A stretch of DNA of 32,000 nt from Xylanibacter ruminicola 23 (GTDB lineage: Bacteria; Bacteroidota; Bacteroidia; Bacteroidales; Bacteroidaceae), in assembly GCF_000025925.1 (NCBI RefSeq), contig NC_014033.1, forward strand, positions 1,830,001 to 1,862,000, written 5' to 3'. The notes under the pieces were generated by a model, which was given only the letters and a program-made list of their open reading frames with translations, made no database searches and had not been told where the DNA came from. Below are positions 1-24,999 of the stretch, one piece after another (positions within the stretch are counted from its first letter, which is position 1; each line of letters opens with the position of its first letter). Made by a program: the position numbers and the translations under genes.

Positions 1-743
1 AGAAGGTAATCATTCGTTGCTCTTAAAGCTACTTTATAATAATCATTATAATGAGCCAATGTACTCTCTACAGACACTGTTTGACCTTCTCTCCCTATAT
101 AATACTGATAAAGAGTGGCATCTATGTAGCAAAAAGATTTCGCTGTAGTTAAGGGATAATAACAATACTCAATATCTGTATAACTGATACCCTCTTGATG
201 TTTTAGTCCAACATCGTGTAATAGGGATGTCTTAAATGTGATGGAATGCATTACAAGAAGACGCTCATTTGGAGTATTAATGAAACGAAAACTATCAAAA
301 TCCAATTGCCCTTTAGGCATATTAACCTCTGCGTAATCTTGAATAGTACCATTTACGTCAATTGCACGGTAATTGGTTAAAACAAAATCAAAGGTATCTT
401 GACCAGAAATTAAAGCTTTTACTACTGTTTGCAATGCTTCTTGATCGAACCAGTCATCGGCATCTAGTATCCTGAAAAACATACCCGTTGCTTCTGCTAG
501 TCCCTTATTTATACAAGAGCCATAATTCCCGTTTTTCTTGTCAATTGCCCTAAACACACTAGGAAACTTTTCCTGATAAGATTGAGCTATTTCAAGTGAT
601 CTATCTTTACTCCCATCATTTATTACAAGGATTTCGATTTGCTCAAATAGATATCTATCTTCTATTACCAACGAATCAAGACAACGCTGGAGATACTTTT
701 CCATGTTGTAAGTTGGAATAACTATTGAAAGTATTTTACTCAT
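1..743 (-). CDS. Family 2 glycosyltransferase (GT-A fold); C-terminal part runs off the window
   Basis: Own translation from ATG at 743-741: MSKILSIVIPTYNMEKYLQRCLDSL...ILVINDGSKDRS...FRILDADDWF. It has the GT2 N-terminal IVIPTYN, DGS-D and DADD motifs. The frame stays open to position 1, and it is absent from the ORF track because there is no stop in the window. Confidence 0.8.
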   Translation of the reverse strand, partial: MSKILSIVIPTYNMEKYLQRCLDSLVIEDRYLFEQIEILVINDGSKDRSLEIAQSYQEKFPSVFRAIDKKNGNYGSCINKGLAEATGMFFRILDADDWFDQEALQTVVKALISGQDTFDFVLTNYRAIDVNGTIQDYAEVNMPKGQLDFDSFRFINTPNERLLVMHSITFKTSLLHDVGLKHQEGISYTDIEYCYYPLTTAKSFCYIDATLYQYYIGREGQTVSVESTLAHYNDYYKVALRATNDYL

Positions 744-791: not shown

Positions 792-1640
792 TCAAATGGA
801 AAGAATTTTGGATGCAATCCCAAAATCTTTCAAAAAATCAATAAAAGACTCAGCCTTCTCTTTACTTGAAGTAAAATCGCGGTTCGCTAATGATAATTTT
901 CCATATTTTTTTGCACCCAAATTGTGGCATACAAGAATCTCAATTATGTTTATTTCCATAACACTAAGCCAATCCTTAACTTCATTTATATAGTCCATAA
1001 CACTATCAACAAATACGAACCTAAAGAATATGCTCTTGCCGCCAATCATCATTAGATGTTTCTTTATCTCATTTTGATAGTTGCTATCACTTAAATACAT
1101 CTCAGGTTGAATTTTTAGGTCTACTATATATGTATCAATAAAAGGATTTACTAATAATAAAGATTGATCTGGTGCAATTAATGATGTTTCTAATGCTATA
1201 TGCAATCCTTTCTCTTTTAAAAGCTCGAGGACACTAACCAAATTTTCAGACTGGAATAACGGTTCTCCTCCAGAGAAGGTTATACCGCCATTAGATTCGA
1301 TGTATAAAGATTGGTCTCTTAGCAAAATATGAAACAGTTCATCTGGAAGATAATCCCTTGATGTCTCCTCTGCAACTCCAAAAGGACAAGCTGTAATTGA
1401 GTTGCTCCCTTTATTTCTCTGACAGAGTTTACACAATTCAGAATGAACCCCTTTAGACAAAAGGCATTTACTATTATCAATAAACAATTCTTTTTCAAAA
1501 GAAATTGTTTCAGGATTACAACACCACGGGCAACGTAAATAACATCCCTTAAGAAAGACCGTTGTTCTCACTCCAGGACCGTCATATACACATCCCCTTT
1601 GGATATTGGTGACTCTAAGTTGCTTCATATACTTCAGCAC
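792..1640 (-). CDS. Glycyl radical enzyme activating enzyme (radical SAM)
   Basis: 282-aa ORF. GCVYDGPGVRTTVFLKGCYLRCPWC carries the CxxxCxxC cluster motif in the usual GRE-activase N-terminal context. FSGGEPL is the SAM-binding motif. There is an extra Cys set, C-x10-C-x2-C-x11-CP, consistent with an auxiliary Fe-S insert. The start overlaps the stop of the upstream GRE gene by 12-26 nt. Confidence 0.85.
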   Translation of the reverse strand: MLKYMKQLRVTNIQRGCVYDGPGVRTTVFLKGCYLRCPWCCNPETISFEKELFIDNSKCLLSKGVHSELCKLCQRNKGSNSITACPFGVAEETSRDYLPDELFHILLRDQSLYIESNGGITFSGGEPLFQSENLVSVLELLKEKGLHIALETSLIAPDQSLLLVNPFIDTYIVDLKIQPEMYLSDSNYQNEIKKHLMMIGGKSIFFRFVFVDSVMDYINEVKDWLSVMEINIIEILVCHNLGAKKYGKLSLANRDFTSSKEKAESFIDFLKDFGIASKILSI

Positions 1641-3609
1641 GTCGTATTAGATTATCTTTAAACGACTCTGGCAAATCATTAAAATAAGCACTAAAGCCCC
1701 AAACCCTTACAATAAGATTAGGATATTTTTCAGGATGAGCTTTGGCATCAACCAATGTAGCTTTATCCATAACATTAAGCTGTAATTCAAAAATACCGTT
1801 TGAACATGCATTTTTTAATATCCTCGTAAGCTTTTCTGACTCTTTTATATAAGAAGAAGGTATTATAAAATCTACCACATTGCCATTTATGCAATTATCA
1901 TTATAATGCAGCATTGACGAGAATTCTAATACCTCGGATATGTCTATTTTTGAAGTAAGAGGAGATATGTGAACAGCAAAGGGTTCTCCATTTAATCTCC
2001 CATCTAATGAAGCAAGAACATCTTTTGAACTTGAAATATAATTAGGAGAACTAAAACCGACTTTGACAGGTTGACCGTTGCTCGTCAATTTACTAATCAC
2101 ATCTCCTGTAAATGATATAAGATTATTTGTTAGTTCAACAACTTCTTCATCTGTTGATCCAAATTTCTTCCCTGAATTAATTACTAATGAATGGAGATCT
2201 TCCATTCCCTCAAAATTAGTCTCAATTGCCCTTTTGCAATCTGAGAGCTTAAACAATTGTTCATCATATACAAATTGTTTGATACTCAATAATGCGTTCA
2301 CGGTATTGGGGAGACTTACCACTTGTGCGCCATGGAAAGAGTATTTTGCACCACCATCTGTGAAGTCCAGTTCTTTATCAATACAATCATCAAAAAACAA
2401 TGTAAAAAGAGGAGAGCAATCAAAATCAATATCTTTTACGACACTTTCTAATTCTTTTGCATAAGCTGCTTTATACGAAATTAATAGACTATTAAAGTTT
2501 GTAAAGTCTTCTCCAGACAATATAATATCATTAAGAGGTTTTATGGCAATAGCGCTCTTAAAAGGATTATTCTGGTCAAATGACTTACCTATAATAAGCG
2601 GCTCCCAACAGGCAGATGTACCAACATTCCAGACATCACTCCTATCGTAACCAAACCTAGCCATCTTATCCATTACGAGCATTTCGTTCATAATAAGAGG
2701 TGAGCCTGTTCCTGTTAATATACACTTAACAGCCTTATTCCATATTTGCATTGATGTATCCTTATTAACCCGTAGAATTAATTTGGGGTCAGGAATCTTT
2801 AACTCTGCCATAATTTCTAAGAATAACGAAGTTAAAGGTGTATCCACATTTAATCCTTGCTCGTTAACACCTCCGAGTAATATATACTGCCCTGTATCAC
2901 CAACAAATGACATGCTTTTCGCATGTGTATCTTTCCCTAAAACGAGGATAAATTCTCTTATCATCCTTTTTGCCTCGCTCTCGGTTATTATTCCATTTAG
3001 TATATCATTTTGATAATACTCGCATAAAATACTATCGAGACGACCCAATCCTATATGATAGTGATCCATTTGCCAAAATAAAGCATTATAAAACAACAAC
3101 TTTTGCAATGCTTCATCTAATGAGGTCGGTTTGCCATATAGCATTTTTGGAAAATAATCTTTAAGGATGATTTCTCTCCTTCCATCACTCTTTGCTAATG
3201 ATATAGATACTCTATTAGCAAGCTTTTCTATCTCGCTCAACACCTTAAGTTCTCTGTCTTTGAAAGCAATATTTGAGCATTTTTGAATGCGGCTTCTTAA
3301 TTCATTTAAATCTGATTGAAGTACGCGGTCATAGTCTACTGTAATACTACAAATAACAGGGCGCTCATGCATTCTCAATATTAACGAATCCAGTGGATAA
3401 ATATACTCAGTGCCTGTATGAATCTTGATTTTTGAATAAATAAGAGACAATTGTCTGACATAATCATCCAAATAGTTCAAGCTTTTATTATCAAGAACCA
3501 ACTTTCCGTTTACAACAGCTCCAAACCTTGAAACAGAAGGATTTTTTTGATTTAGCTTGCCATACCCTCCGATCAACTTCATGAGCCATGAAAATGCACG
3601 ATTACCCAT
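1615..3609 (-). CDS. Glycyl radical enzyme, PFL2/dehydratase-like family, short form (664 aa)
   Basis: C-terminal IVRVWGFSAYFNDL matches the glycyl radical loop (RVxG[YF]). NVGTSACWEP matches the Cys loop with C-x-E spacing, as in eliminase/dehydratase-type GREs. The blocks GRLDSILCEYY, LILRVNKDT, GTGSPLIMNE, DGRLNGEPFA and ELQLNVMD...HPEKYPNLIVRV follow the family layout as I recall it. Confidence 0.85.
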   Translation of the reverse strand: MGNRAFSWLMKLIGGYGKLNQKNPSVSRFGAVVNGKLVLDNKSLNYLDDYVRQLSLIYSKIKIHTGTEYIYPLDSLILRMHERPVICSITVDYDRVLQSDLNELRSRIQKCSNIAFKDRELKVLSEIEKLANRVSISLAKSDGRREIILKDYFPKMLYGKPTSLDEALQKLLFYNALFWQMDHYHIGLGRLDSILCEYYQNDILNGIITESEAKRMIREFILVLGKDTHAKSMSFVGDTGQYILLGGVNEQGLNVDTPLTSLFLEIMAELKIPDPKLILRVNKDTSMQIWNKAVKCILTGTGSPLIMNEMLVMDKMARFGYDRSDVWNVGTSACWEPLIIGKSFDQNNPFKSAIAIKPLNDIILSGEDFTNFNSLLISYKAAYAKELESVVKDIDFDCSPLFTLFFDDCIDKELDFTDGGAKYSFHGAQVVSLPNTVNALLSIKQFVYDEQLFKLSDCKRAIETNFEGMEDLHSLVINSGKKFGSTDEEVVELTNNLISFTGDVISKLTSNGQPVKVGFSSPNYISSSKDVLASLDGRLNGEPFAVHISPLTSKIDISEVLEFSSMLHYNDNCINGNVVDFIIPSSYIKESEKLTRILKNACSNGIFELQLNVMDKATLVDAKAHPEKYPNLIVRVWGFSAYFNDLPESFKDNLIRRAEVYEAT

Positions 3610-3610
3610 A

Positions 3611-5059
3611 TTATTTTGTTTTCATTCTAAATTTATCTGATACTGTTGAACAAATCCAAATGAATGAACCGTTTTTCAGTATATACTCCATAACACAAAA
3701 TGTTAATACTCCTAATAAAACATAACTAATAACAAGAACCCATCCTTGTAGAAACTGCTTTAATAATATCATTAGAGGAATGAGGATTAAGGCTCCAATT
3801 AGTGCTTTAAGAATATCCTTCCAATTACTAATTCTTATAGGTGTATTTTTATAAACGAATAGCGTTGTAGCTACCAAGATAATTGTTTCTGCTGCGACTG
3901 ACGCAATAGAGGCGCCAACACTACCATAGAATGGAATTAATAGGCAGTTTAAAAGGAAATTAGATATCGCTCCAATTATCACTGAATAAAGAAAAAACTT
4001 ATCAAACCCCATACCTATAAGGATTTGAACTCCTGTAAGATTATTTAAACCTATCGCAATTATCAATAAACTTAATATCATTAATGGTAGAATCGATCCC
4101 CAGAACAACTCTCCAAAAAACAAAGGGACAAAAGAAGGGGAAACACATATAAGACCTATCGCGGCAGGGAAAGAAAGAAGAGAGACTACAGAGAACGACT
4201 TATCCATTAAAGAGTTAATCCCTGAATAATCTTTGTTTTGCATATAATATGACACCCTAGGAACAGCAACTATTGACAAACTGGTTACTGCCGTAAGTAT
4301 CACTTTTGACATATTCATGGCATTTGTGTAAAAACCGACTTCTTCATATCCTTTTATAAATCCCAACATTAAAGTATCTAACACACCATATATCGATATG
4401 GCTATAGAAGAGGCGAACAAAGTAAGTAAAGGCCGCATATGGGGTTTAAGACCTTTAGTCGTTAAGCGTGGTCTTATCCCAGAGCGTCTCATTTTAATAT
4501 AGTTCCAAATGTCGGTAAGGACAGCCGCAAGTACACTAATTAAAACATATATTATAAGATCCTCCTTGTTACGTACAAAAACAAAAAGGCTAATAACACT
4601 TGCTGTACGAATAACTAATGTACGAAATGTAATATATCCAAACTCTTCAAGACCTTGATAATACCAATTAATTTTAAATGGTGCGAGGTACACAAGAAAA
4701 CCGGCGAGTAAGAAAATAAGAAAGTTCTCCGTAAGCTGGTTCACAAATAGAAGTGAAGCAATATAAGCGATAGTGACTCCAATTGTAGTAAAGGCCGCTA
4801 TAGACATTATCTGCGAAACCAGCGTTGAAATTCCTTCTTTATCATCTCTTAGTTTAGAGACCTCGCGTACACCATAAGTGGGTATACCAAGCAATGCAAC
4901 CAATGCAAAATACCCTGCATACGTATTGGCAAAATTGTATATACCTATACCATCTGGTTCCAAAACGCGTGAGACATATGGTGCCGTGATTAAAGGAAAA
5001 ATCACGGATGAGATATTCAAAAGGACATTATATAAAAAATTCCTTTTAATTGATTTCAT
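3611..5059 (-). CDS. wzx: Wzx-type oligosaccharide flippase (MOP superfamily polysaccharide biosynthesis protein)
   Basis: 482 aa, highly hydrophobic with about 12-14 predicted TM stretches. The N-terminus (NFLYNVLLNISSVIFPLITAPYVSRVLEPDGIGIYNFA) is typical of Wzx/RfbX. It lies in a CPS operon. Confidence 0.8.
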   Translation of the reverse strand: MKSIKRNFLYNVLLNISSVIFPLITAPYVSRVLEPDGIGIYNFANTYAGYFALVALLGIPTYGVREVSKLRDDKEGISTLVSQIMSIAAFTTIGVTIAYIASLLFVNQLTENFLIFLLAGFLVYLAPFKINWYYQGLEEFGYITFRTLVIRTASVISLFVFVRNKEDLIIYVLISVLAAVLTDIWNYIKMRRSGIRPRLTTKGLKPHMRPLLTLFASSIAISIYGVLDTLMLGFIKGYEEVGFYTNAMNMSKVILTAVTSLSIVAVPRVSYYMQNKDYSGINSLMDKSFSVVSLLSFPAAIGLICVSPSFVPLFFGELFWGSILPLMILSLLIIAIGLNNLTGVQILIGMGFDKFFLYSVIIGAISNFLLNCLLIPFYGSVGASIASVAAETIILVATTLFVYKNTPIRISNWKDILKALIGALILIPLMILLKQFLQGWVLVISYVLLGVLTFCVMEYILKNGSFIWICSTVSDKFRMKTK

Positions 5060-5119: not shown

Positions 5120-6406
5120 TTAAATATTAGAAACCATATCCATAGCTGCCCCCATTGCAACATCCATATTATAGTACTCCCAATCAGCAAAACGACCAGT
5201 GAAGTAGAAGCCATTAGGCGATAAAGCATCCTTCAGCGACTTGATCATACCACGGGTATTTGCGTCCTGAATCGGATAGGTATATTTGTTATACTGATGA
5301 TCCAAATATTTTGGATTCAGGGGTATTCTGGAGAGGTTATCTAGGATGTCCTCCTTGCTTATTTCATCTGTAAACTCGATAGTTGCCGTAATGCGATCCT
5401 TAGCCACAGATAGGTAATTATTTGTCTCAGAGAAATTACCAGTACAAATAATACGATGACTCTCATGACGACGAGAAGGCTGATAAATCCAGGAATAAGG
5501 ATTTTTGTCAATTTCGCAGAACACAGCTGTCGTGCCATGATACTCCAAATTAGCAACAGGTTTCTTGAAGGCTTCAATATCCAGGCCCCCAATCATATTG
5601 ACCATGTCTTTGATATTGCCGCAGAACACGACTTTATCAAACTCTTCTCCACATACAATCCATTTCCCGTTTACAAGTTTTATTGATTGGATGTCAGAGT
5701 CGTAGCGAATATCAAGACCTTCAGCCAACTTATCTGCAATATATTGTGAACCATCTTTCTTTTCATACCAGAAAGTGGCATGTACAAAGGCTTTTTCTTC
5801 TACCTTATTGGCATTGTTATCTCGCATTTCCTGAGTGGTTGGCATTGGAAGTTTTCCCTCCATCCACGACATCGGAACTGTTGTCAAATCACGACGCCAC
5901 ACTTTCTCATTGTAGGGCTGGAAATAGAGGTTATAGAGAGTCTTACCGAAGCGCCAACGGAGGAAATCACCAAAGCTATCGTAATCCGTAAATGTGGCGT
6001 TCAAACCCTTCACCTTATCTATTTCCTCCAAGTCTTCATAGAAGGCTGTCTGTGTTGCCTCATCAAATAGGTACATATGATTCTCTATGGGGTAAGGGAT
6101 ATTGTCATGTTCCAGAGACGTGCCGTTTTTATCCATAAAGACACAAGAATTACGGTCAGCTTTACTGAACTCTTCTTCACGGGTAAACTTTGACCAAAAC
6201 CAATCAAGAACATCTTGTCGTTTGGAGTTAAACACATGTCCTCCACAAGTGTGGAAGAGACTACCATTCACTCTACGGCACTTAATTAGGCCTCCAGGCT
6301 GGCTTTCTTTCTCAAAGACAGTAATGTCATACTTATCTCTAAGAAAATGAGCAGTGCTCATTCCAGAAATGCCAGCTCCAATTATCGCAATTCTATTATT
6401 ATTCAT
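5120..6406 (-). CDS. FAD/NAD(P)-binding oxidoreductase; possibly a UDP-galactopyranose-mutase-like or amine-oxidase-fold enzyme
   Basis: 428 aa. N-terminal IAIIGAGISGMSTAHFL...VFEKESQPGG is a Rossmann GxGxxG dinucleotide-binding motif followed by the GG motif. HTCGGHVFNS resembles the mutase/oxidase fold. It has a 4-nt overlap with the upstream gene. Confidence 0.6.
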   Translation of the reverse strand: MNNNRIAIIGAGISGMSTAHFLRDKYDITVFEKESQPGGLIKCRRVNGSLFHTCGGHVFNSKRQDVLDWFWSKFTREEEFSKADRNSCVFMDKNGTSLEHDNIPYPIENHMYLFDEATQTAFYEDLEEIDKVKGLNATFTDYDSFGDFLRWRFGKTLYNLYFQPYNEKVWRRDLTTVPMSWMEGKLPMPTTQEMRDNNANKVEEKAFVHATFWYEKKDGSQYIADKLAEGLDIRYDSDIQSIKLVNGKWIVCGEEFDKVVFCGNIKDMVNMIGGLDIEAFKKPVANLEYHGTTAVFCEIDKNPYSWIYQPSRRHESHRIICTGNFSETNNYLSVAKDRITATIEFTDEISKEDILDNLSRIPLNPKYLDHQYNKYTYPIQDANTRGMIKSLKDALSPNGFYFTGRFADWEYYNMDVAMGAAMDMVSNI

Positions 6407-7383
6407 AACTTGTCAATTATATTCTTTAAACTATTTGCTCTAACTGACGTATAATGCATAGAAAGATAATCCGAATATTTTTTCATGTCCACATCGGAAT
6501 CTAGGGCTTTTTGAACAGCCATCTCAAATTGTTCATAAGTTTCTATATTTTCCGAGAAACTCTTTAAATCATAGTATTCCGTATCAGAATTCATGGAATA
6601 TCTTGCAATAATATGGCAACCTGTAGCTACTAGTTCCAAGAAACGTGGAGTTACTTGGTGATAACCTTTAGTCCTACTCTCATCACCATCAATGCCCGGT
6701 GTGGAATAAAGCCCCATTTTACCCTTTCGCATTATTTCTATGTATTTCTCTCTTGTATCAATATTGCCTAGTATTTCCCCTCTAGAAGTAGCATATATCC
6801 AAGTTTTATCACTCATTGATTTCCGGTAAACAAAGTAAAAATCAGGGTGCTTTTCGTAATACATCTTTACAAAAGTCTCAAGCTTTGGATTCTGTCTTCC
6901 AACCATTACCAGGTCATATTTCTTTTCAATTTTTGAATCTGATGTTATCGAATACTTATCAGAAATACTCAATGGATGATGGACAATATTCAGCGGACAT
7001 CCTTTGCTCTTTAGATAATCGTATGCTTCTTTACTTGAAATTAATACTATTGGGCAATGGTAATAATTATTATAAAAAGACAATAATTCTTTATCTGTGC
7101 GCAAATAGAAATCTATAATACATGGGATATAATTTTTCTTGTTATTAATGTTATTTACATAGGGGGTCATTTCTAGTGCAAAAACTTTTTTGCGAATGGA
7201 AATACTCGTAAGAAAAGCATTAAATGATTTGAAACGTTTATCTTCCAAATACTCCTGATACTTTTTCTTCGGTATAAAATCTACCTCTAGAACATCTTTA
7301 TAAATATCCTCCCACTCATAAACAATATCGTAAGATGGGTACTTTTCAAATTCTCTTTTAGTATATACACCCTCTATCAACAT
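6403..7383 (-). CDS. Hypothetical protein, possibly a GT-B/CgeB-like glycosyltransferase
   Basis: 326-aa ORF in the CPS operon, translationally coupled to the next gene (ATGA overlap). The C-terminal half (LVMVGRQNPK...STPGIDGDES...TPRFLELVATGCHII) loosely resembles the donor-binding half of GT-B enzymes. I recognised no firm family motif. Confidence 0.45.
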   Translation of the reverse strand: MLIEGVYTKREFEKYPSYDIVYEWEDIYKDVLEVDFIPKKKYQEYLEDKRFKSFNAFLTSISIRKKVFALEMTPYVNNINNKKNYIPCIIDFYLRTDKELLSFYNNYYHCPIVLISSKEAYDYLKSKGCPLNIVHHPLSISDKYSITSDSKIEKKYDLVMVGRQNPKLETFVKMYYEKHPDFYFVYRKSMSDKTWIYATSRGEILGNIDTREKYIEIMRKGKMGLYSTPGIDGDESRTKGYHQVTPRFLELVATGCHIIARYSMNSDTEYYDLKSFSENIETYEQFEMAVQKALDSDVDMKKYSDYLSMHYTSVRANSLKNIIDKL

Positions 7384-8008: not shown

Positions 8009-8467
8009 TTATTTCTCCAAACCCAGCACCAATGTATAGTACTCCAATATCCTGCTGATTACAAAATCTGCTTCATGTTTTGTAGGGAATGTACCTGAGG
8101 CATGACAATACGTATTACGTTTATTGGTCACTTCATCTTTAATTCTTGTAGCGACATCGCCAGAGAGTTGCTTAAATCCTGCAGCATTTCTTTGCAAGTC
8201 CCTGACATACTCTGTAATAGAATGACTTGTGTCTGTTCTTGCCCCAAACTTATCTAGGAAAATACGTAGCCCAGTGTCAAATGCCCTCGTGGAATGTAAC
8301 ACCCTATTCAGTTCTGCTCTACGGGCATCTTTAACCACTAACGTAGAGTCTTCTTCCATATTCCACTCATTCTTTACGATGTCAGCCATCTGTACCAAAG
8401 CGGTATTACCTACAACAAAAGAATCAAGTTGAAATTTCAGTGTTTCTATTTTTTTAGCGAGCGACAT
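8009..8467 (-). CDS. Predicted HEPN-domain protein (candidate RNase effector), 152 aa
   Basis: I take the start at MSLAKK (ATG 8467-8465), because the longer ORF-track start lies inside the upstream gene. The sequence looks all-alpha. TNKRNTYCHASG contains R-N-x-x-x-H, the Rx4-6H HEPN signature with the typical polar residue after R. The gene overlaps the upstream gene by 14 nt. Confidence 0.55.
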   Translation of the reverse strand: MSLAKKIETLKFQLDSFVVGNTALVQMADIVKNEWNMEEDSTLVVKDARRAELNRVLHSTRAFDTGLRIFLDKFGARTDTSHSITEYVRDLQRNAAGFKQLSGDVATRIKDEVTNKRNTYCHASGTFPTKHEADFVISRILEYYTLVLGLEK

Positions 8468-9317
8468 GATTACGAATATTTTGATATTTATCAAATACTT
8501 GCCAAAGCTGCTGCTGAGTTGATATAGAGATTGGTGCCATGCCAACAAACGACAACATCCGATTGTAACTATTAGGAACCATATCGGCATCGAACATTGT
8601 CCAATCAGTATTAAGCACACTCAGCTCATCAAACATTGCTGTTGGATACAATCTTCCATCGTCAAGATGAAACATTGACATAAATGCCAAAGTCATCAGA
8701 CTATCAAGTGAAGATTTAAAACTAATGCTTGATTTCCTTTCAGCCACTCCAACAAATCCACCTTGTGTTTGCCAATAGTTATTATTTGAACGACGATTCT
8801 GGGTACTCCAGCTAACGGTTTCAACTTTCCTTACTATGTTTCTATTATCAAAAGCAGCAACCTTCCCTATCTCTGAATAAGACTTAACAGATAGTTCAAG
8901 CCTATTTCTGTAATTGACATACTGCATCGACTGGATCTTACTAAAATCCTTCATGCGTTTCACTACAGGCGATTCTACAGAAATATATCTAACTACATCA
9001 TTTGCGGTATCAGAGATATGACAGAATGAGTTTTCTAATATTTTCGAATCAACTTTTGCAGGTACTTCTTTTATAAGTACAAGTATTGGAATAAGTTTAT
9101 ATCCATAGCTCAGCTGAGACAAAAATAATCTACGCAGAAGGTAATCGATATTCTCCCCCTCTTTATAAGACTGCACATAAACAGCAAACAGCTTGCTGCC
9201 ATTTGCAGCTATCAAATCAGGATTATCCAATGTAAATGGATTCTCTGGTGATATCAGGCATCGCTCGCAATTATTTGCGACAGTTTCAATAAAATAATGT
9301 TTGTCCGCTATCCTCAT
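8454..9317 (-). CDS. Hypothetical protein (287 aa), partner of the HEPN-like gene
   Basis: ORF track. It starts 12 nt after the epimerase stop and overlaps the downstream HEPN-like gene. I recognised no family motif. There is only a weak PD...QSYK pattern in the N-terminal third. Confidence 0.6.
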   Translation of the reverse strand: MRIADKHYFIETVANNCERCLISPENPFTLDNPDLIAANGSKLFAVYVQSYKEGENIDYLLRRLFLSQLSYGYKLIPILVLIKEVPAKVDSKILENSFCHISDTANDVVRYISVESPVVKRMKDFSKIQSMQYVNYRNRLELSVKSYSEIGKVAAFDNRNIVRKVETVSWSTQNRRSNNNYWQTQGGFVGVAERKSSISFKSSLDSLMTLAFMSMFHLDDGRLYPTAMFDELSVLNTDWTMFDADMVPNSYNRMLSFVGMAPISISTQQQLWQVFDKYQNIRNHVAR

Positions 9318-9329
9318 AGATATACATCG

Positions 9330-10391
9330 TTATTTATAATAGCTTTTATACCATTCCGAAAAATCACGAAGCCCTTCTCTTAATGAAATCTTTGGTGTAA
9401 ATCCAAAATCACGTTCCAAGGCTGTTGCATCAGCAAACGTTGCAGGCACATCGCCTGGCTGCATGGGTACCAATTGTTTGTGAGCTTCGAAATCGAAATC
9501 CTTTGGCAGTACGCCAGCACGAACCAATTCTTCTTGAAGGATATTCACGAAATCGAGTAATTTTTCGGGCTGCCCACCTCCAATGTTATACACAGCATAG
9601 GGTGGTACAGGTAAGCCATCCTCGCCTTTCTTACGTTCTGGAGCACCCTGCATTACACGTACAATACCCTCAACAATATCATCGACATATGTAAAATCGC
9701 GACGACAGTTGCCATAGTTAAATATCTGGATGGTTTCGCCTTTAATCAGTTTGTTGGTAAAACCAAAGTAAGCCATATCTGGACGACCTGCAGGGCCATA
9801 CACTGTAAAGAAACGTAGACCAGTAGTGGGGATATCGTAGAGTTTGCTGTAGCAATGTGCCATCAACTCGTTTGATTTCTTTGTGGCTGCATAAAGCGAT
9901 ACAGGATTGTCTACACGATCGTCGGTAGAGAATGGTACTTTCTTATTGCCACCATACACACTGGAACTTGAAGCATAAACTAGATGCTCAACTGGGTGAT
10001 TCCTACAGGCTTCGATGATATTGTAGAAACCGATTATATTTGACTGGATGTAAGCATCGGGATTGGTGATACTATAGCGGACACCGGCCTGTGCTGCAAG
10101 GTTTACCACTACATCGAAATTATACTGAGCAAACAGTTTCTCTATCAAGTCCTTATCAGCCAAATCTCCCCGTACAAAGTGCCATTGAACATGGAACATT
10201 GAACATTGAACATTTAGTTTCTTGAGGCGATACTCCTTTAGGCGAACATCGTAATAATCGTTCATATTATCGATGCCTACGATAGTTGCGCCCTTTACAT
10301 CCTTAAATAAACGATGTACCAGATAAGATCCAATGAATCCTGCAGCACCAGTTACAAGGATACACTTGTTATCTAAGTTAATCTTTTCCAT
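9330..10391 (-). CDS. NAD-dependent nucleotide-sugar epimerase, UDP-glucuronate 4-epimerase-like (SDR family)
   Basis: 353 aa. It has LVTGAAGFIGSYL (the GxxGxxG motif), NLAAQAGVRYS, the catalytic YAATKKSNE (YxxxK), and FFTVYGPAGRPDMA, typical of the CapI/WbnF/Uge group. Confidence 0.85.
   Translation of the reverse strand: MEKINLDNKCILVTGAAGFIGSYLVHRLFKDVKGATIVGIDNMNDYYDVRLKEYRLKKLNVQCSMFHVQWHFVRGDLADKDLIEKLFAQYNFDVVVNLAAQAGVRYSITNPDAYIQSNIIGFYNIIEACRNHPVEHLVYASSSSVYGGNKKVPFSTDDRVDNPVSLYAATKKSNELMAHCYSKLYDIPTTGLRFFTVYGPAGRPDMAYFGFTNKLIKGETIQIFNYGNCRRDFTYVDDIVEGIVRVMQGAPERKKGEDGLPVPPYAVYNIGGGQPEKLLDFVNILQEELVRAGVLPKDFDFEAHKQLVPMQPGDVPATFADATALERDFGFTPKISLREGLRDFSEWYKSYYK
10183..10215. repeat. 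Heptanucleotide tandem repeat (CATTGAA x ~4.7) inside the epimerase CDS
   Basis: CATTGAA CATGGAA CATTGAA CATTGAA CATTT. It encodes NVQCSMFHVQW on the minus strand. Confidence 0.8.
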
Positions 10392-11115
10392 ATTTCTCTA
10401 CAGCAGCATAATATGTATCAAGACTACCGATATCAAATCTCCCTGCACTCATGGGCCAGGCATGCATAGTGGTGTGTTCTACCATATAATGTGCCAGATT
10501 GCCAGGGGCATCTTTGCCACAGCCATTTTCTACAGAGTGGCGTACCAAGGCGAGATCTTCCTTTAGATAGATATAGAAAGGAGGTACAGCCCAATGACTT
10601 TTGGGGGCTTGTGGTTTCTCCTCCATACCAAGTACGCGGTTGTTCTCGTCGAGCTCTACAACACCTGTGCGCTGAAGTTTCTCTATGCTTGGCTGCTCAT
10701 GACACATGATGCAAGAGGTTTTCTTGGCTTTAGCGAAATCAACGAACACCTGGAAAGAGAAGAATAGCAGGTTATCGGCTGCTACCACCAGCAAATCGTC
10801 GTTGATATGCAGCTTATCCATCGCAAAAAGCAAGTCGCATACGGCACCAAGGCGGGTTTCGTTTGTATCCGTGCCATCATCAACAATCGTGATGGGCTTG
10901 GTATAATGCTGAGCTTTTGCCCAATCTTCGAAGATACCGGCAAACTTATGATTGGTAATGATGATATGCTCGGTGATGTCATCGATTGCATCGATGTCGT
11001 CAAGCATACGGCCTAAGATGGTGTTATTACCAATCTTTAGCAACGGTTTCGGAAAGTTCTTGGTTAACTCACCCAAACGAGTGGCGTAACCAGCAGCTAT
11101 TACAATATTAATCAT
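10378..11115 (-). CDS. Sugar-1-phosphate nucleotidyltransferase
   Basis: 245 aa. The N-terminal IVIAAGYATRLGELTKNFPKPLLKI is the G-x-G-T-R-L nucleotidyltransferase signature. Both ends overlap neighbouring genes. Confidence 0.8.
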   Translation of the reverse strand: MINIVIAAGYATRLGELTKNFPKPLLKIGNNTILGRMLDDIDAIDDITEHIIITNHKFAGIFEDWAKAQHYTKPITIVDDGTDTNETRLGAVCDLLFAMDKLHINDDLLVVAADNLLFFSFQVFVDFAKAKKTSCIMCHEQPSIEKLQRTGVVELDENNRVLGMEEKPQAPKSHWAVPPFYIYLKEDLALVRHSVENGCGKDAPGNLAHYMVEHTTMHAWPMSAGRFDIGSLDTYYAAVEKYGKD

Positions 11116-12257
11116 TATTCTACAAATCTTGCTCCATCATCTGGCTTTACCCAAAACACCTGGAATGTTTTTTCGTACTCAGGGAACTGAGCCAGATATT
11201 TTTCGGTTAATACCTTTTCTATTTCAACCTTATGAGCTGGGTTAACCAAAGCTATGCAAGCACCCTTGAAACCGGCACCAGAAAAACGACCACCATATAT
11301 GCCTGGCAGGGCACGCATAATCTCGTAGATGGCTATCAACTCAGGACTACCGCACTCGTAGTTATGGATACTGCTCTCACAAGAGTCGAAGCTCAGTTTT
11401 CCAAAGAGTTTCAAATTACCCGTTTCCCATGCTGTTACACCCTGACGCACACGGCGATATTCGCTATAGAAATGTTCGGCTCGACGGGCAAAACGCTGGG
11501 GCATGGCAATACGTGTTTTCTCGAAGGTAGCCTTTGAAATATCGCGTAAGAACGTCTTATCGAAAGTTTTCAGTGGCTGATCGGTATAAGCCAACATATT
11601 CCAAGCAGCAGTCTTACACTCGAAAACACGAAGGTTATAATCGCTATTAACGAGACTTCGGGTTAATCCAGAGAAGAAAATACCAATCTCGAAATCTGGC
11701 ATATCAGGATGACGTTTGATGATACGCCAATCGTTGCTATCGCAATCTAGGAAGAGCAAACCATCTTTCTTACCTAAGGCAATGCAAGCCTGATCGAGCA
11801 AACCGTTATTTAAACCGATATACTCACGCTCAGCCTCGGATGCTATCTTTACTATCTCGAAGGGTTGAAGTGTAATGTCGTTAGCCTTGGCAAATGCCAT
11901 CACATAGGCAATCAATACAGCAGCACTGGATGACAAGCCACCCACAGGCAGTGAACCTTGAATAACACCAGTGATGCCATGTTTCAATGCGAAACGTTTG
12001 CAAAGCGCATACTTAGCACCACGGGCATAGTCGCCCCAATGTCGCTCGCGCACCTGAGAAGGTGCATCAATCTCGAAATCAACCAACCCCTCGAAGGTTT
12101 TTGACTCCAGATGTACATGACCATCCTCGTTCACATCAAACCAAAGGTCTACACCTTTATCGATGGCAAAGCCAGTTACCAGTCCATGTTGATGATCAAC
12201 ATGTGCCCCCAACGGGCAAACTCTATATGGTGAAAATATATGGTATTGCATAAACAT
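11115..12257 (-). CDS. GHMP-family sugar kinase (galactokinase-like anomeric sugar-1-kinase)
   Basis: 380 aa. LPVGGLSSSAAVLIAY is GHMP motif II, PLGAHVDHQHG resembles the galactokinase signature GEHxDY, and GGRFSGAGFKGACIAL is motif III. Confidence 0.8.
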   Translation of the reverse strand: MFMQYHIFSPYRVCPLGAHVDHQHGLVTGFAIDKGVDLWFDVNEDGHVHLESKTFEGLVDFEIDAPSQVRERHWGDYARGAKYALCKRFALKHGITGVIQGSLPVGGLSSSAAVLIAYVMAFAKANDITLQPFEIVKIASEAEREYIGLNNGLLDQACIALGKKDGLLFLDCDSNDWRIIKRHPDMPDFEIGIFFSGLTRSLVNSDYNLRVFECKTAAWNMLAYTDQPLKTFDKTFLRDISKATFEKTRIAMPQRFARRAEHFYSEYRRVRQGVTAWETGNLKLFGKLSFDSCESSIHNYECGSPELIAIYEIMRALPGIYGGRFSGAGFKGACIALVNPAHKVEIEKVLTEKYLAQFPEYEKTFQVFWVKPDDGARFVE

Positions 12258-12545: not shown

Positions 12546-12584
12546 TGTAAGGGATAGAGATATTTTCCTTATTGGTTTTCATCG

Positions 12585-12650
12585 AAAATCAAGTTGATTT
12601 TTACTCAAAATCAAGTTACTTTTGATCCAAAATCAAGTTAGTTTTTACTG
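12585..12650. repeat. Three tandem 22-bp direct repeats AAAATCAAGTTNNTTTTNNNNN
   Basis: The units are AAAATCAAGTTGATTTTTACTC, AAAATCAAGTTACTTTTGATCC and AAAATCAAGTTAGTTTTTACTG, head to tail with no spacers. An inverted CAACTTG follows at 12655-12661. Confidence 0.85.
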
Positions 12651-12713
12651 ACCATCAACTTGGTTATCTGACACTAACCGGTCATAAATGGTCAATTTAC
12701 TATCCGGTTATCG

Positions 12714-12960: not shown

Positions 12961-13653
12961 TTATATTTTCTGGAGGAACGGGGTTGGAATGTAGGCGGTG
13001 GCGCAGAGGCAATTGAGGGCGGTAAGAGCAACGAGCACTCGTTGCTGACCGCGGGCTCGGATAACACGCCCACGAACACCTTTGAACTGACCACAGATAA
13101 CCTCGACCTCATCGTCGGTCTTGTAATGGAAGTCGCCACCTTGGAGCATCAGTAGATTCTCGTCGTTAGTGCAGGTGGCACGGATAAAGTTGAGCATCTC
13201 GTGCTCAGGGATAGTAAGCGGCGGGTTGCGCCAGTTCTCACCCTCGACAAAATGATTGTAGTAGAAGCTGAGGAACTCTGACAGCTGCGGTGCAGGCGAA
13301 GGCTCATCGGGATCGTTATTACGAACGAACATCATGGCCTGCCTGGGTATGAGATAGGCGAACACGATATTGGCAATGAGGCATTGCAACACCTTTTTAG
13401 GGCGCCCCTTCACCTCGATATAGGTATAGCGTTTGGGAACGTAGGCATAAACACCACTCTGGATGAGCAGCTGCTCGGCTAATATCTCACGACCATAGGA
13501 GGCACGAAGTACATACCAACGCTTATCAGGGTCAGGAGCGTATTCTACCGACACCCCTTTTTGTGCATTTACAGCTTCGGGGATGGCCATGGGGGTAAGT
13601 CCACAGCGGGTTATTGGTGATGTAGCCTTGTTAGCATTAGTCAATGCATCCAT
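12961..13653 (-). CDS. upxY: UpxY-family transcription antiterminator (NusG/KOW-like), first gene of the CPS locus
   Basis: 230 aa. KRWYVLRASYGREILAEQLL is an NGN-like start, and the C-terminal EVEVICGQFKGVRGRVIRARGQQRV is a KOW motif. Its position at the head of the polysaccharide operon fits UpxY. Confidence 0.85.
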   Translation of the reverse strand: MDALTNANKATSPITRCGLTPMAIPEAVNAQKGVSVEYAPDPDKRWYVLRASYGREILAEQLLIQSGVYAYVPKRYTYIEVKGRPKKVLQCLIANIVFAYLIPRQAMMFVRNNDPDEPSPAPQLSEFLSFYYNHFVEGENWRNPPLTIPEHEMLNFIRATCTNDENLLMLQGGDFHYKTDDEVEVICGQFKGVRGRVIRARGQQRVLVALTALNCLCATAYIPTPFLQKI

Positions 13654-14037: not shown

Positions 14038-14169
14038 CACCTTTTATTTGAAATAACCAAAGAAAAAGCCAATAAAGAATAAAAAAATCCTCCTGCCTTG
14101 ATTAAAAGCAGAAAATAACAATTTGTTCATCTTCTTTTCAAAAAACTTGCATGTTTCAACTATTTGTTT

Positions 14170-14177
14170 TATATTTG
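14170..14177 (+). promoter_or_regulatory. Promoter -7 box TATATTTG for the 14206-15191 operon
   Basis: Exact TAnnTTTG match 29 nt upstream of ATG 14206, with a TTGC 19 nt further upstream. Confidence 0.5.
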
Positions 14178-14205
14178 CAGCGTCTTAACAATATTAGAGT
14201 TATAT

Positions 14206-14691
14206 ATGGAAGATAATAATATCAAAATGGCTTCAGAGCCTGCAGTAGCATATCCCATAACATCTTATACGGATGTGATGGAGTATATTCACTCTATCCA
14301 TATATCACGTGAAGACAAGGAGAAAGTGGCTCAGCGTCTTACAGTTGAGGTAACTCAACCAGCTTTGGCTGAGGCTTATGATCGCATAGATCACCTAAGT
14401 ACGCTTGGAATAGATTGGGATGGCCACGGAGCTCTTCCTATATCATTTCGAGTACTTAAAAATATCAAGAGCGTTCTGATGATTTCACAGAATTCTGATT
14501 GGGAACACTGGATGATTGCTCCTGATACTAACGCTACGATTGATTTGGAGTCGGAAAAAACTGGAGCTGTAATCAGTCTTGGAGCTTATGAGTATTCTTA
14601 TTTTGCAAAGGTTAATGGTGAAAGATTAGGTGAGAGTCATATTGATTTTAAACCAGAGGCTTTCCTTGAATTAATGCGTAAACTCGGATGA
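14206..14691 (+). CDS. Hypothetical protein (161 aa), first gene of an uncharacterised two-gene operon; candidate antitoxin or immunity component
   Basis: I take the ATG at 14206 (MEDNNIK...), downstream of the -7 box; the ORF-track start at 14164 lies upstream of the likely TSS. It contains LGIDWDGHGALPIS. The stop overlaps the next start (ATGA). Confidence 0.6.
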   Translation: MEDNNIKMASEPAVAYPITSYTDVMEYIHSIHISREDKEKVAQRLTVEVTQPALAEAYDRIDHLSTLGIDWDGHGALPISFRVLKNIKSVLMISQNSDWEHWMIAPDTNATIDLESEKTGAVISLGAYEYSYFAKVNGERLGESHIDFKPEAFLELMRKLG

Positions 14692-15191
14692 ACACATCAG
14701 ATACACCAACAGAAATACATCAGGTTCCCTCCGAGGAAAATGTCGCTCGTATTCTTTCCAAGGAGTGGTTCGTTAAGGATAAACTTTTATCAGTTGCTTT
14801 TGCTTTGGATGCAGGTGAGACTTATCTCTCTGTAAATCGTCCTGCTATTGATACATATGATAGTGATGTTTCTGCATTTGTGAAGAAACATAGTAGTTAT
14901 GCTTTCGATAGCGATAGTTACAAACGTGCATTGTTAAATGTTGGTGACGTTCGTAGTATAAAAGTAGAGGTTGGGGCAACTCAAATGATGACAGATGTTG
15001 AGGTGGAACCTCGAGATGCTCATACAAAGTCGCATGCGGGTATTTTCACCAGGTTCCAAAACGTGAACATCAAGAAAGGTCAGATATTGAAAGCTGGTCC
15101 AACAGCCGAGGAAATCTCTGCAGATACGGTACTTTTAGAAGTCCGCAAAGAATTACTAGCCCTTTCAACTGTTGAGGATTGCAAGTTTTAA
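14688..15191 (+). CDS. Hypothetical protein (167 aa), second gene of the operon; candidate toxin or effector
   Basis: ORF track. It has a 4-nt ATGA overlap with the upstream gene. I recognised no family. Conserved-looking blocks are ETYLSVNRP and EPRDAHTKSHAGIFTRF. Confidence 0.6.
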   Translation: MNTSDTPTEIHQVPSEENVARILSKEWFVKDKLLSVAFALDAGETYLSVNRPAIDTYDSDVSAFVKKHSSYAFDSDSYKRALLNVGDVRSIKVEVGATQMMTDVEVEPRDAHTKSHAGIFTRFQNVNIKKGQILKAGPTAEEISADTVLLEVRKELLALSTVEDCKF

Positions 15192-15405: not shown

Positions 15406-15747
15406 TTAACCCAATAATTTTATTCCGTCTTCAGTTACGTTTTCGCGGAAAGGACTAATTATACTGCTTTCCCAATCGCGTTTGGTATATAAGATCGTAT
15501 TAATGCACTGATTATAGTCCCAACCCAATTCGCATAATGGATAAGAATAATCATCAATATCCTGAGAGGTTATGTGATCTTTATCAAGCAGGATAAGCAC
15601 ATCCCAATCAGAATCTTCACGAGCATCACCACGTGCTCTTGAGCCAAAGAGAATAACTGTAGCACCCTTTGGCACAATCTGACTAACCTTGTCTCTTATA
15701 GCATTCAAGATTTGATTATTAATCACGCTTACCCTCCATCTTATCAA
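15406..15747 (-). CDS. Minimal nucleotidyltransferase (MNT / Pol-beta superfamily) domain protein
   Basis: 113 aa. ILFGSRARGDAREDSDWDVLILLD matches the GS-x9-12-D-x-D NTase motif. An alternative GTG start at 15726 overlaps the AbiEii stop (GTGATTAA). There is no HEPN partner gene downstream. Confidence 0.8.
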   Translation of the reverse strand: MIRWRVSVINNQILNAIRDKVSQIVPKGATVILFGSRARGDAREDSDWDVLILLDKDHITSQDIDDYSYPLCELGWDYNQCINTILYTKRDWESSIISPFRENVTEDGIKLLG

Positions 15748-16522
15748 TAAAAATCTTATAAACTATCGGATAGGCTTCTGAGGGTGAGAATTTTATCTCA
15801 GGGCGGAGAAGTAGCGTTGTGTCCTCCAAGAACTCCGGGTCTTGCATTTTCTCCTCCATATTATTCACAAACTGCTTGTACGACGGTGCCTTATCTACCA
15901 CAAATTCCATATACTTCTTATAGCATAGCATAACCTTATCCACGTCCACATCATGCTTGGTCAATGCACAATAAAGGTCAAACAGGTCGCGTCCCTTCTT
16001 TCGTTGATAAAGCGCACGCAGTTTGGTTCCAAGTAATTCCTCGAAGTGATAGGTTGTCAATTCTGTCTTACCTGTAAACCACGAGTTTTTCATACTAAAA
16101 GGAACTTTAGTCAACCCCAGCACGTTAAAATGCTCAAAGCAGTTGATTTCAACCTTCAGTCGAATCTGTATCACAGGAGCTATCTCCGATTCAACCCTAA
16201 ACAACATTGTATTGTTGTATCGTTTCTGCTTGGTCACTCTATCGGGTAGCCAACTGAGCACTTCTCCTAACCTATACATAATAGGTTTGATAGGACCAGG
16301 ATTAATCTGCACAAGGTCGATATCCTCACTATAGCGAGGCTGCGGTGATAAGTAAAGCTTATGCAGGGCTGTGCCACCACGAAATGCTAATTGTGAAGCG
16401 AGAAATTCATCGCTAAAGATACTTATCAACGCACGGCAGATAATGAGATCTTGCTCCACCATATAAGGCTCTGTCCAAGGAGCCATTTCCTTCCATTCTT
16501 GGATAAAGTATTCTGGTATCAT
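15719..16522 (-). CDS. abiEii: AbiEii/AbiGii-family nucleotidyltransferase toxin (DUF1814)
   Basis: 267 aa. FRGGTALHKLYL...YSEDIDL is the NTase core of AbiEii. It has a 4-nt overlap with the upstream AbiEi gene. Confidence 0.8.
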   Translation of the reverse strand: MIPEYFIQEWKEMAPWTEPYMVEQDLIICRALISIFSDEFLASQLAFRGGTALHKLYLSPQPRYSEDIDLVQINPGPIKPIMYRLGEVLSWLPDRVTKQKRYNNTMLFRVESEIAPVIQIRLKVEINCFEHFNVLGLTKVPFSMKNSWFTGKTELTTYHFEELLGTKLRALYQRKKGRDLFDLYCALTKHDVDVDKVMLCYKKYMEFVVDKAPSYKQFVNNMEEKMQDPEFLEDTTLLLRPEIKFSPSEAYPIVYKIFIDKMEGKRD

Positions 16523-17331
16523 ATTTCATCAGTTTCTATTTCTTGATTAACGATCACCTTCCATCGACTATCAATTACCATATCGTCTGTTTGAGTCTTC
16601 GACTGCTTCAGACGGATTTTCCGAAACAGTTTACTCTGCTTTTGTGCAAGCATCAGCAGACGATCGGCAAGTTCATGCTCTTCAATCAAATCAAGCAAAT
16701 ATCCCAGACGCTGAATAACGGGTGCATTAAAGAAAGTGAGAAGATCTGTGAAGGATTCGTCGAAATGCATGTTTTCTGATAGTTCTATCAGCACCTCTGT
16801 AACGCGATTAATACCACCAACCTTGTTCTCATTAAGCACCAAATCAAGGGCCGTTAACTCAGGCGACGAAACATTTATGAACCCCATTTGAGTCTTCACC
16901 TGCTTCACATACATCATAGGGAGAGGGTTGCGAAGTGTAAAATCAAGTCTTACTCCATTCTTTATTCCAGAGTGTATAGGTGCTCCGTTCACTGTAACCT
17001 GGAACGCCATTGCCCGCTGATGCCCCGCGCCGTTCAGCGCAGCAGCCGACAGCAGAGATACGTAATAATCCCTACCTAAAGACTTCATCAGATGGTCGAT
17101 ATAAAGCGATGGTGGCACATTTCCCTTCAACCGATACTCCGTAGGCACCACCACATAGAAATTCTGCCAAGGAGAAACAATCACACCCTTCTTACCTAAC
17201 CTCGACAAAGCCGTATTCAGACTATCATCCGCCTGCGATAGCCCTTGTGCTAACACATCTTCCTTCGTAAAGATGTACCTGCCTCGAATCATTTGCTGGT
17301 CAACCCAGCTCTGTAAACTACCCGTTCGCAT
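16519..17331 (-). CDS. abiEi: AbiEi-family antitoxin/transcriptional regulator (type IV TA)
   Basis: 270 aa. It has a winged-helix-like N-terminus (FTKEDVLAQGLSQADDSLNTALSRLGKKGVIVSPWQNFYVVVP) and a SLLSAAALNGAGHQ block, as in COG5340-type AbiEi. It lies directly upstream of AbiEii. Confidence 0.75.
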   Translation of the reverse strand: MRTGSLQSWVDQQMIRGRYIFTKEDVLAQGLSQADDSLNTALSRLGKKGVIVSPWQNFYVVVPTEYRLKGNVPPSLYIDHLMKSLGRDYYVSLLSAAALNGAGHQRAMAFQVTVNGAPIHSGIKNGVRLDFTLRNPLPMMYVKQVKTQMGFINVSSPELTALDLVLNENKVGGINRVTEVLIELSENMHFDESFTDLLTFFNAPVIQRLGYLLDLIEEHELADRLLMLAQKQSKLFRKIRLKQSKTQTDDMVIDSRWKVIVNQEIETDEI

Positions 17332-24915: not shown

Positions 24916-24916
24916 G

Positions 24917-24999
24917 TGGGTGCTGATGGATTCGAACCACCGAAGTCGAAAGACAGCAGATTTACAGTCTGCCCCATTTGGCCACTCTGGAAAACACCC
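24917..24999 (-). tRNA. tRNA-Tyr (anticodon GTA), long variable arm, no encoded CCA
   Basis: The reverse complement is GGGTGTTTTCCAGAGTGGCCAAATGGGGCAGACTGTAAATCTGCTGTCTTTCGACTTCGGTGGTTCGAATCCATCAGCACCCA. The acceptor stem pairs 7/7, the T-loop is GGTTCGAATCC, and the anticodon loop is CTGTAAA. It aligns well with E. coli tRNA-Tyr. Confidence 0.93.

Follow-up and report, generated by a model that had tools for sequence, protein, structure and literature searches.

Within a 32,000-nucleotide stretch of the Xylanibacter ruminicola 23 genome (contig NC_014033.1, positions 1,830,001 to 1,862,000; "the window"), a capsular polysaccharide operon contains the genes for a glycyl radical enzyme (GRE) and its dedicated activase. 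We lean toward the view that this pair is active in surface-polysaccharide biosynthesis, with the GRE working as a cytoplasmic, strictly anaerobic radical C-O eliminase on a capsule sugar, most likely a galactofuranose (Galf) intermediate. The parts of this proposal differ in strength. A GRE dedicated to glycan biosynthesis is very probable given its genomic setting, C-O eliminase or isomerase chemistry is fairly probable given its active-site loop, and Galf as the substrate is a tentative assignment. The features that carry the argument are as follows.

1615..3609, minus strand: GRE of 664 aa, a member of a short RVWGF/ACWE clade, with Pfam PFL-like and Gly_radical matches
1681..1713, minus strand: glycyl radical loop IVRVWGFSAYF (residues 633-643), with G638 as the predicted radical site
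2599..2622, minus strand: Cys loop GTSACWEP (residues 330-337) with its CXE motif, C334 being the predicted thiyl radical and E336 the predicted general base
792..1640, minus strand: GRE-activating radical S-adenosylmethionine (SAM) enzyme, 282 aa from GTG 1640 or 278 aa from ATG 1628
1521..1544, minus strand: activase CX3CX2C motif CYLRCPWC (residues 33-40), coordinating the [4Fe-4S] cluster that binds SAM and conserved in 100% of 37 family activases
1386..1466, minus strand: activase auxiliary Cys set C59-x10-C70-x2-C73-x11-C85, 89-100% conserved in 37 family activases
3611..5059, minus strand: Wzx-type oligosaccharide flippase, directly upstream of the GRE (Pfam Polysacc_synt, 8.6e-32)
1..743, minus strand: 5' part of a GT2 glycosyltransferase gene that begins 48 nt past the activase and, complete in the genome, encodes 335 aa

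The 664-aa protein matched Pfam Gly_radical (E=1.4e-13) and, over profile positions 247-635 of 647 only, PFL-like (E=1e-57), and it carries the C-terminal R-V-x-G that marks the GRE superfamily. These strong matches came from the HMM search recommended in the original prediction, which was made from the DNA letters alone, and the open reading frame and both loops lie where that prediction had read them. In an alignment of 28 family members, R635, V636, W637, G638, F639, and S640 were invariant, as were C334 and E336 of the C334-W-E336 motif. HMMER aligned C334 and E336 with C433 and E435 of glycerol dehydratase (GDH, 1R8W), and C334 also aligned with the equivalent Cys of propanediol dehydratase (PD), PflD, and HpyG. 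At the position of the Gly loop, GDH, PD, PflD, and HpyG all read RVAGY. The sequence is identical to ADE81588.1/WP_013063575.1 and to one in GCA_019973335.1, and the public annotation of WP_013063575.1 is "pyruvate formate lyase family protein".

The GRE had also been described as shorter than most PFL2-family members, and it is indeed ~100-180 aa below solved GREs (765-850 aa). Still, an AlphaFold2 model with the 28 family sequences as input reached a pLDDT of 90 and a pTM of 0.90, and Foldseek matched it to CutC, PD, and HplG with a query-normalized TM of 0.83 and a probability of 1.00, even though identities to solved GREs were only 15-23%. Because the model is confident and superposes on choline TMA-lyase, PD, and HplG, the full GRE fold appears to be present despite the short length, with a predicted ten-stranded beta/alpha barrel that holds the Cys loop and the Gly loop.

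None of the characterized GREs proved to be a close relative. A sequence search of the PDB returned HpyG (8id1, E=7e-51), PflD (8id0, 8yjo), PD, and GDH as its top five matches, and identity to characterized GREs was at most 23%. The best NCBIfam equivalog scored 172 bits against a cut-off of 1109, and the subfamily model TIGR01774 scored 198 against 678; no equivalog for PFL, HypD, CutC, HpfG/HpsG, HPAD, IAD, or the PflD type came near its cut-off. Tight clustering with a characterized catabolic GRE, which the original prediction had named as evidence against a capsule role, was therefore not seen. Two other identities were rejected outright. The single Cys (A333-C334) in the S-A-C-W-E loop, in place of a Cys-Cys pair, indicates that the protein is not pyruvate formate-lyase (PFL) proper, for which TIGR01255 gave 50 bits against 994. 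Nor is it an aminoacyl radical enzyme (AARE), because Gly638 is invariant and AAREs store the radical on Ala, Ser, or Thr instead of Gly (PMC13450708).

The invariant CXE motif is the mark of GRE 1,2-eliminases and of a new isomerase class (PMC13450708), in line with the earlier suggestion that the C-x-E spacing is of the dehydratase/eliminase type. The presence of PD, GDH, and PflD, which acts on a sugar phosphate, among the five best PDB sequence matches also speaks for such chemistry. A glycan GRE that does not perform C-O elimination is an improbable alternative, whether it would cleave the Galf side chain at a C-C bond to leave an arabinofuranose-type pentose, deoxygenate with formate in the manner of ribonucleotide reductase (RNR), or isomerize or epimerize its substrate. 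All characterized CXE enzymes are eliminases or isomerases (PMC13450708), the loop has one Cys rather than the PFL pair, and the GRE had no RNR-family match. However, GREs also carry out C-C cleavage, decarboxylation, and reduction, and the CXE isomerase class is itself recent (PMC13450708). The changed Gly loop and pocket residues leave room for such chemistry, and a reaction without a follow-up step would fit the lack of a conserved partner reductase described below.

The unusual Gly loop had been flagged as an oddity of this protein. We searched 1.84 billion representative proteins, obtained 646 matches below 1e-30, and examined the best 150 for motifs. Among these 150, every ~620-750-aa sequence with a readable Gly-loop pattern carried RVWG[F/W], and most of these short sequences had an ACWE-type Cys loop, down to 28% identity. 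Of the ~790-800-aa proteins that ranked lowest in the set, most had RV[A/S]G[Y/W] again. The clade of short GREs (~670 aa) comprised >100 representative clusters at the 50% identity level. Therefore, W637 and F639 are present as first read, but they form the signature of a whole large clade rather than a peculiarity of one protein. Neither residue would fit PROSITE pattern PS00850, which we take to have [CSA] before the Gly and Y after it.

A sister sub-clade (P0244-P0286; ~685-700 aa, 28-31% identity) had the Gly loop RVWGWSGYF and the Cys loop AACWEF. The nearest other GRE clade, at 25-27% identity, has an RVSGF Gly loop, and six of its loci, recovered with the window GRE in a contig scan for exact peptide words, were used as an outgroup; no Wzx, GT2, or UDP-galactopyranose mutase (GLF) neighbors were found at these six loci. 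Inside the short clade, the GREs of loci L063, L065, and L052 read GKSSCQNN for GKSFDQNN, KGTKYMYQG for GGAxYxYHG, and KFGLSS for KVGFSS. Of the GRE types, the L065 group (15 contigs) turned up most often in human gut metagenomes, and it has no GLF nearby. Altered motifs in these GLF-less loci suggest that the clade may hold more than one specificity and that the L063/L065/L052 group, judging from sequence, may have a different substrate. A comparison of motifs with GLF presence gave no clean rule, and only this group stood out.

The GRE is accompanied by an activase of its own. This protein matched Fer4_12 (E=4e-12) and Radical_SAM (E=1.3e-7) and scored 173.4 bits against TIGR02494, "glycyl-radical enzyme activating protein", for which the cut-off is 174.35. 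It has SGGEP at residues 123-127, and its motifs were 89-100% conserved among the 37 family activases. Its four auxiliary Cys would suffice to bind one additional cluster, compared with eight such Cys in many PFL2-type activases. The activase gene overlaps the GRE stop codon (1617-1615), by 14 nt from ATG 1628 or by 26 nt from the upstream GTG 1640, so a dedicated CX3CX2C radical-SAM enzyme is encoded right next to the GRE. This bears out the coupled activase of the original prediction, with its CxxxCxxC, GGEP, and auxiliary Cys. The placement of the pair between Wzx and GT2 genes was likewise correct, but with the last nucleotide of the Wzx stop codon at 3611 and the first of the GRE ATG at 3609, the spacer is 1 nt rather than the 2 nt first given. 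The genes do share one strand, which is the minus strand.

Evidence for a role in glycan biosynthesis came from genomic context. We called open reading frames and clustered neighbor proteins at 88 family loci and dereplicated these at 90% GRE identity to 43 loci, which are not phylogenetically independent and whose GREs are 45-67% identical to that of the window. Every one of the 43 with readable flanks was a polysaccharide locus, with genes for Wzx, Wzy, GT2, GT4, acyl- and acetyltransferases, LicD/IspD, or pyruvyltransferase. The activase lay directly 3' of the GRE, usually overlapping it, in 40 loci; the remaining three were cut off or had no activase that we could find. About half of the family loci had Wzx as the gene just before the GRE, and more divergent GRE subfamilies were also placed in wall or capsule loci. 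Pyruvyltransferase genes occurred in 10 of the 43 loci, five of which had a second, unannotated ~380-aa gene family alongside.

Fusion proteins also tie the GRE to this setting. GT2-GRE fusions of 982-1001 aa formed at least 41 clusters at the 90% identity level (46-100% identity), many of them on several contigs, and a separate 1011-aa fusion fell within the window GRE's own family. Wzx-GRE fusions of 1113-1132 aa formed six clusters (52-100% identity). Because both kinds are kept across wide divergence, they are not frameshift artifacts, and they link the GRE physically with glycosyl transfer and with flipping, which places it on the cytoplasmic side of the membrane. The neighborhood survey proposed in the original prediction thus returned polysaccharide loci together with conserved fusions, and its biosynthetic reading is supported by this context, by the fusions, and by the distance from characterized GREs.

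These results also bear on whether a catabolic or fermentative GRE cassette sits in the capsule locus by chance, or whether the gene is a decayed, non-catalytic relic. The public annotation as a PFL-family protein and the catabolic roles of all the nearest solved relatives would suit such an explanation, which we nevertheless consider extremely improbable. Glycan context recurred in 43 dereplicated loci and four subfamilies, with GT2 and Wzx fusions; the activase CX3CX2C motif is invariant, as are the Gly, Cys, and Glu expected to act in catalysis; and the genes, which share a strand, are closely spaced, with overlaps at junctions. The context survey effectively refutes a catabolic cassette inserted by chance.

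Two further observations concern the fusion loci. At each of the three GT2-GRE fusion loci that we examined, the activase gene was followed by one for a 745-878-aa fusion of ferredoxin-type Fe-S domains, an FrhB/FdhB-like flavoprotein domain, and a polysaccharide pyruvyltransferase. This fusion could serve in lactyl ether synthesis, as a reductase, or as an electron donor to the activase. Its genes lie at these positions.

L095, 13857-16493: ferredoxin-FrhB-pyruvyltransferase fusion gene
L097, 13731-16280: ferredoxin-FrhB-pyruvyltransferase fusion gene
L099, 13828-16065: ferredoxin-FrhB-pyruvyltransferase fusion gene

In addition, flippases akin to the Wzx part of the Wzx-GRE fusions (P0411-P0433) were also fused to GLF, Acyl_transf_3, an SDR epimerase, GT4, and a hexapeptide transferase; the Wzx-GLF fusion P0412 has 858 aa and was on at least 22 contigs (L106, 8001-10577). 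Fusion of a tailoring enzyme to the flippase looks like a general habit of these loci, which are apparently of the Clostridia type.

The accessory genes gave a tentative lead to the substrate. A true GLF (PF03275, ~1e-75) was present in 27 of the 43 loci, and in 17 of the 22 with ≥4 kb on both sides, so that among accessory genes only the activase and GT2 were more frequent (Wzx was found in 25 loci). In 23 of the 27, GLF lay 0-1 genes from the GRE-activase pair, compared to 7.9 expected under random placement within the same loci, an expectation that does not include the frequency of glf in GRE-less loci of the same taxa (P ~1e-9, which is optimistic because dereplicated loci are not independent). 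The linkage took three gene orders: GLF-Wzx-GRE-activase, GRE-activase-GLF, and GRE-activase-DUF4422-GLF. DUF4422, which has the GT111 UDP-Galf transferase fold (PMC12269835), was encoded beside the pair in 10 loci, and a DUF4422 gene precedes a 626-aa Lachnospiraceae-type GRE. Among the fusion loci, GLF occurred with a GlfT2_N glycosyltransferase or with DUF4422 at two of the three GT2-GRE loci, and it preceded the fusion gene at the one Wzx-GRE locus examined.

Several points weigh against Galf dehydration, beginning with the two limits on the adjacency statistic just given. GLF was absent from the well-flanked loci L042, L063, L065, and L105, and the canonical GLF of the window's own locus lies nine genes downstream of the pair, beyond position 1. 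The Wzx-GLF fusion locus L106 lacks a GRE, so Galf can be used without this enzyme, an optional add-on, and the proximity of GLF and Wzx without a GRE means that part of the adjacency may reflect ordinary operon layout. No reductase for a keto or aldehyde product was consistently co-located among the 43 loci, where SDR genes occurred in only nine; the cell may use a carbonyl sugar unchanged, or the reaction may be of another kind. Finally, the GDH substrate contacts H281, S282, Y339, and D447 were not conserved, with Y184, H185, G240, and a gap or N347 in their places in a tentative HMMER alignment at 21% identity, and GDH His164 fell in the unaligned N-terminal part. G240 lies within an invariant GDTGQY motif, and the gap at GDH D447 lies within an invariant FDQNN motif. 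As far as this tentative mapping goes, the replaced contacts suggest a pocket that differs from those of characterized diol dehydratases.

We also considered a glycan-biosynthetic GRE with a substrate other than Galf, such as another nucleotide sugar, a polyol phosphate of the CDP-ribitol or CDP-glycerol type, a pyruvylated sugar, or a lipid-linked repeat unit, in which case the GLF association would stem from layout or ancestry. The well-flanked loci without GLF, the GRE-less Wzx-GLF fusion, and the altered motifs of the L063/L065/L052 group are all consistent with this alternative. So are the most conserved core, which is Wzx-GRE-activase-GT2 and does not include GLF, the IspD, SDR, and LicD genes directly upstream of the GRE in 5-6 loci, and the ferredoxin-FrhB-pyruvyltransferase gene that comes next to the activase gene, on its far side from the GRE, at each of the three GT2-GRE fusion loci examined. 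Yet GLF is the top accessory gene after the activase and GT2, as frequent as Wzx, and its linkage survives different gene orders and is seen again in four subfamilies and across loci of the Bacteroidota type and the Gram-positive type. On these grounds, we regard a non-Galf substrate as unlikely, though far from negligible.

Under the proposal of a C-O eliminase acting on Galf, the activase, with SAM and its [4Fe-4S] cluster, would set the radical on G638 under anoxia. This radical would pass to C334, which would abstract a hydrogen from a hydroxyl-bearing carbon of the sugar intermediate; E336 would deprotonate the hydroxyl, and the neighboring C-O bond would be eliminated to give a deoxy-carbonyl sugar. 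Hydrogen abstraction, deprotonation, and C-O elimination are the mechanism described for GRE diol dehydratases (PMC13450708). The reaction would have to be cytoplasmic, with a nucleotide sugar or an undecaprenyl diphosphate-linked unit as its substrate, after which the neighboring GT2 would use the product and Wzx would flip the unit.

The substrate itself may be UDP-Galf made by UDP-galactopyranose mutase (UGM) or a newly transferred Galf residue. Among common glycan building blocks, Galf is favored because its exocyclic C5-C6 vicinal diol, which would rotate freely, resembles propanediol and glycerol, and dehydration would yield a 6-deoxy-5-keto or 5-deoxy-6-aldehydo hexofuranose. The UGM equilibrium strongly favors the pyranose, so an irreversible step on UDP-Galf would pull flux, and fusion of the GRE to a transferase would make sense for a labile product. 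The fullest version of this proposal is that the RVWGF/ACWE GREs are the first of glycan biosynthesis and dehydrate the Galf side-chain diol to an undescribed deoxy-keto or deoxy-aldehyde hexofuranose in the capsules and wall polysaccharides of many gut and rumen anaerobes. We hold this version to be possible rather than probable.

Comparison with known systems shows where such an enzyme would stand. Glycerol and 1,2-propanediol dehydratases (1R8W, 5I2A) share its fold (Foldseek TM 0.76-0.83), the C-terminal glycyl loop, the CXE Cys loop, and a dedicated adjacent activase, and their vicinal-diol substrates would be analogous to the Galf side chain. By contrast, they are only ~21% identical, with RVAGY where the window GRE has RVWGF, and the window GRE is 120-180 aa shorter, lies in capsule or wall loci with its relatives, and would act on a far larger substrate. 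Known diol dehydratases are encoded in operons for catabolism or for microcompartments. The PflD/YbiW isomerases (8ID0, 8YJO, 8ID7), which supplied the second and third best sequence matches, act on sugar derivatives and use CXE, yet they are catabolic, 22-23% identical, have the RVAGY loop, and lack a glycan-locus context; their reaction is the ring opening of 1,5-anhydrohexitol-6-phosphate in catabolic "anhydroglycolysis" (PMC13450708). HpyG, the best PDB sequence match, is also a CXE eliminase, but at 792 aa and 23% identity it belongs to amino-acid catabolism.

Two biosynthetic systems offer closer parallels in concept. Class III RNR (NrdD/NrdG), to our knowledge the only well-known GRE with a biosynthetic role, removes a hydroxyl by radical chemistry from a nucleotide-linked furanose and is thus a conceptual precedent. 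However, it forms a separate InterPro family and needs an external reductant; the GRE had no NrdD similarity, and NrdG-family scores of the activase were weak in NCBIfam. AprD4-type radical-SAM enzymes carry out biosynthetic 1,2-diol dehydration of a sugar to a deoxy-keto sugar, as in the 3'-deoxygenation of apramycin. By contrast, they have an unrelated fold, serve antibiotic rather than capsule pathways, and make the working radical directly from SAM with no stored glycyl radical.

The remainder of the capsule operon in the window contains the following genes.

5120..6406, minus strand: divergent UGM-like flavoprotein, 428 aa (NAD_binding_8 4e-14, TIGR00031 1e-16)
6403..7383, minus strand: 326-aa protein whose start overlaps the flavoprotein gene, with no Pfam, NCBIfam, PDB, or PADLOC match
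9330..12257, minus strand: sugar-activation genes of the same operon, for a GHMP sugar kinase, a nucleotidyltransferase, and an SDR epimerase/dehydratase (Pfam)
12961..13653, minus strand: UpxY-like antiterminator of the NusG family that heads the locus (Pfam NusG 1.7e-5)

The flavoprotein occupies, next to Wzx, the slot that holds a canonical GLF in the loci of the closest relatives, and its presence there counts in favor of the Galf link. It is 24% identical to canonical GLF and had no PF03275 match, and its best PDB matches were eukaryote-type UDP-galactopyranose mutases (4dsg, 1.5e-9). The locus encodes two mutase-like enzymes, this divergent one and a canonical GLF, and the divergent one may handle a different sugar nucleotide. 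The GT2 subgroup that includes the window GT2 was represented in 14 loci, often 2-5 genes past the GRE. The sugar-activation genes were not conserved beside the GRE in other loci. The 326-aa protein and two further products, of 287 aa and ~150-200 aa (8009-9317, minus strand), had no Pfam or PADLOC match, and no homologues of the three were found beside the GRE in other loci.

The NusG-domain gene at the head of the locus corresponds to the upxY that had been predicted upstream of the pair. In the 700-nt gap between it and the first sugar-activation gene lies a 41-nt imperfect repeat pair, AAAATCAAGTT-rich, at 12584-12668, which may be a regulatory or antitermination site. Just past the capsule locus are genes for an AbiEii toxin and an AbiEi antitoxin (Pfam 1e-33 and 2e-22; 15719-17331, minus strand), adjoined by two small unannotated open reading frames (14164-15191, plus strand), one with a weak PADLOC PDC-M32A match. 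A tRNA-Tyr (GTA) at 24916-24999 (minus strand) was the sole RNA gene that ARAGORN and Rfam found in the window.

A June 2026 review from the Drennan and Andorfer groups lists the GRE classes as RNR, formate lyases, decarboxylases, X-succinate synthases, C-O/C-N/C-S eliminases, isomerases, and AAREs, and, RNR aside, every function listed is catabolic or degradative (PMC13450708). It names no glycan-biosynthetic GRE, and the words polysaccharide, capsule, and UDP are absent from its text (PMC13450708). Targeted searches of the open-access literature likewise gave no paper that connects a GRE with capsules, nucleotide sugars, galactofuranose, or glycosyltransferases. The statement in the original prediction that no GRE had been assigned to glycan or capsule biosynthesis thus agrees with both sources.

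If true, a GRE clade that builds surface glycans would be a further functional class of the superfamily and would point to capsule sugars that no known pathway makes. The GT2-GRE and Wzx-GRE fusions are ready-made systems for finding the substrate, and the invariant Trp beside the radical Gly is a new variable for the study of how the radical is installed and stored. Oxygen cleaves activated GREs where the radical sits, and this capsule chemistry would therefore depend on anoxia. In abundant gut and rumen Bacteroidota and Bacillota, capsule chemistry would then be tied to strict anoxia, which would bear on antigenic variation, phage receptors, and host immune recognition.

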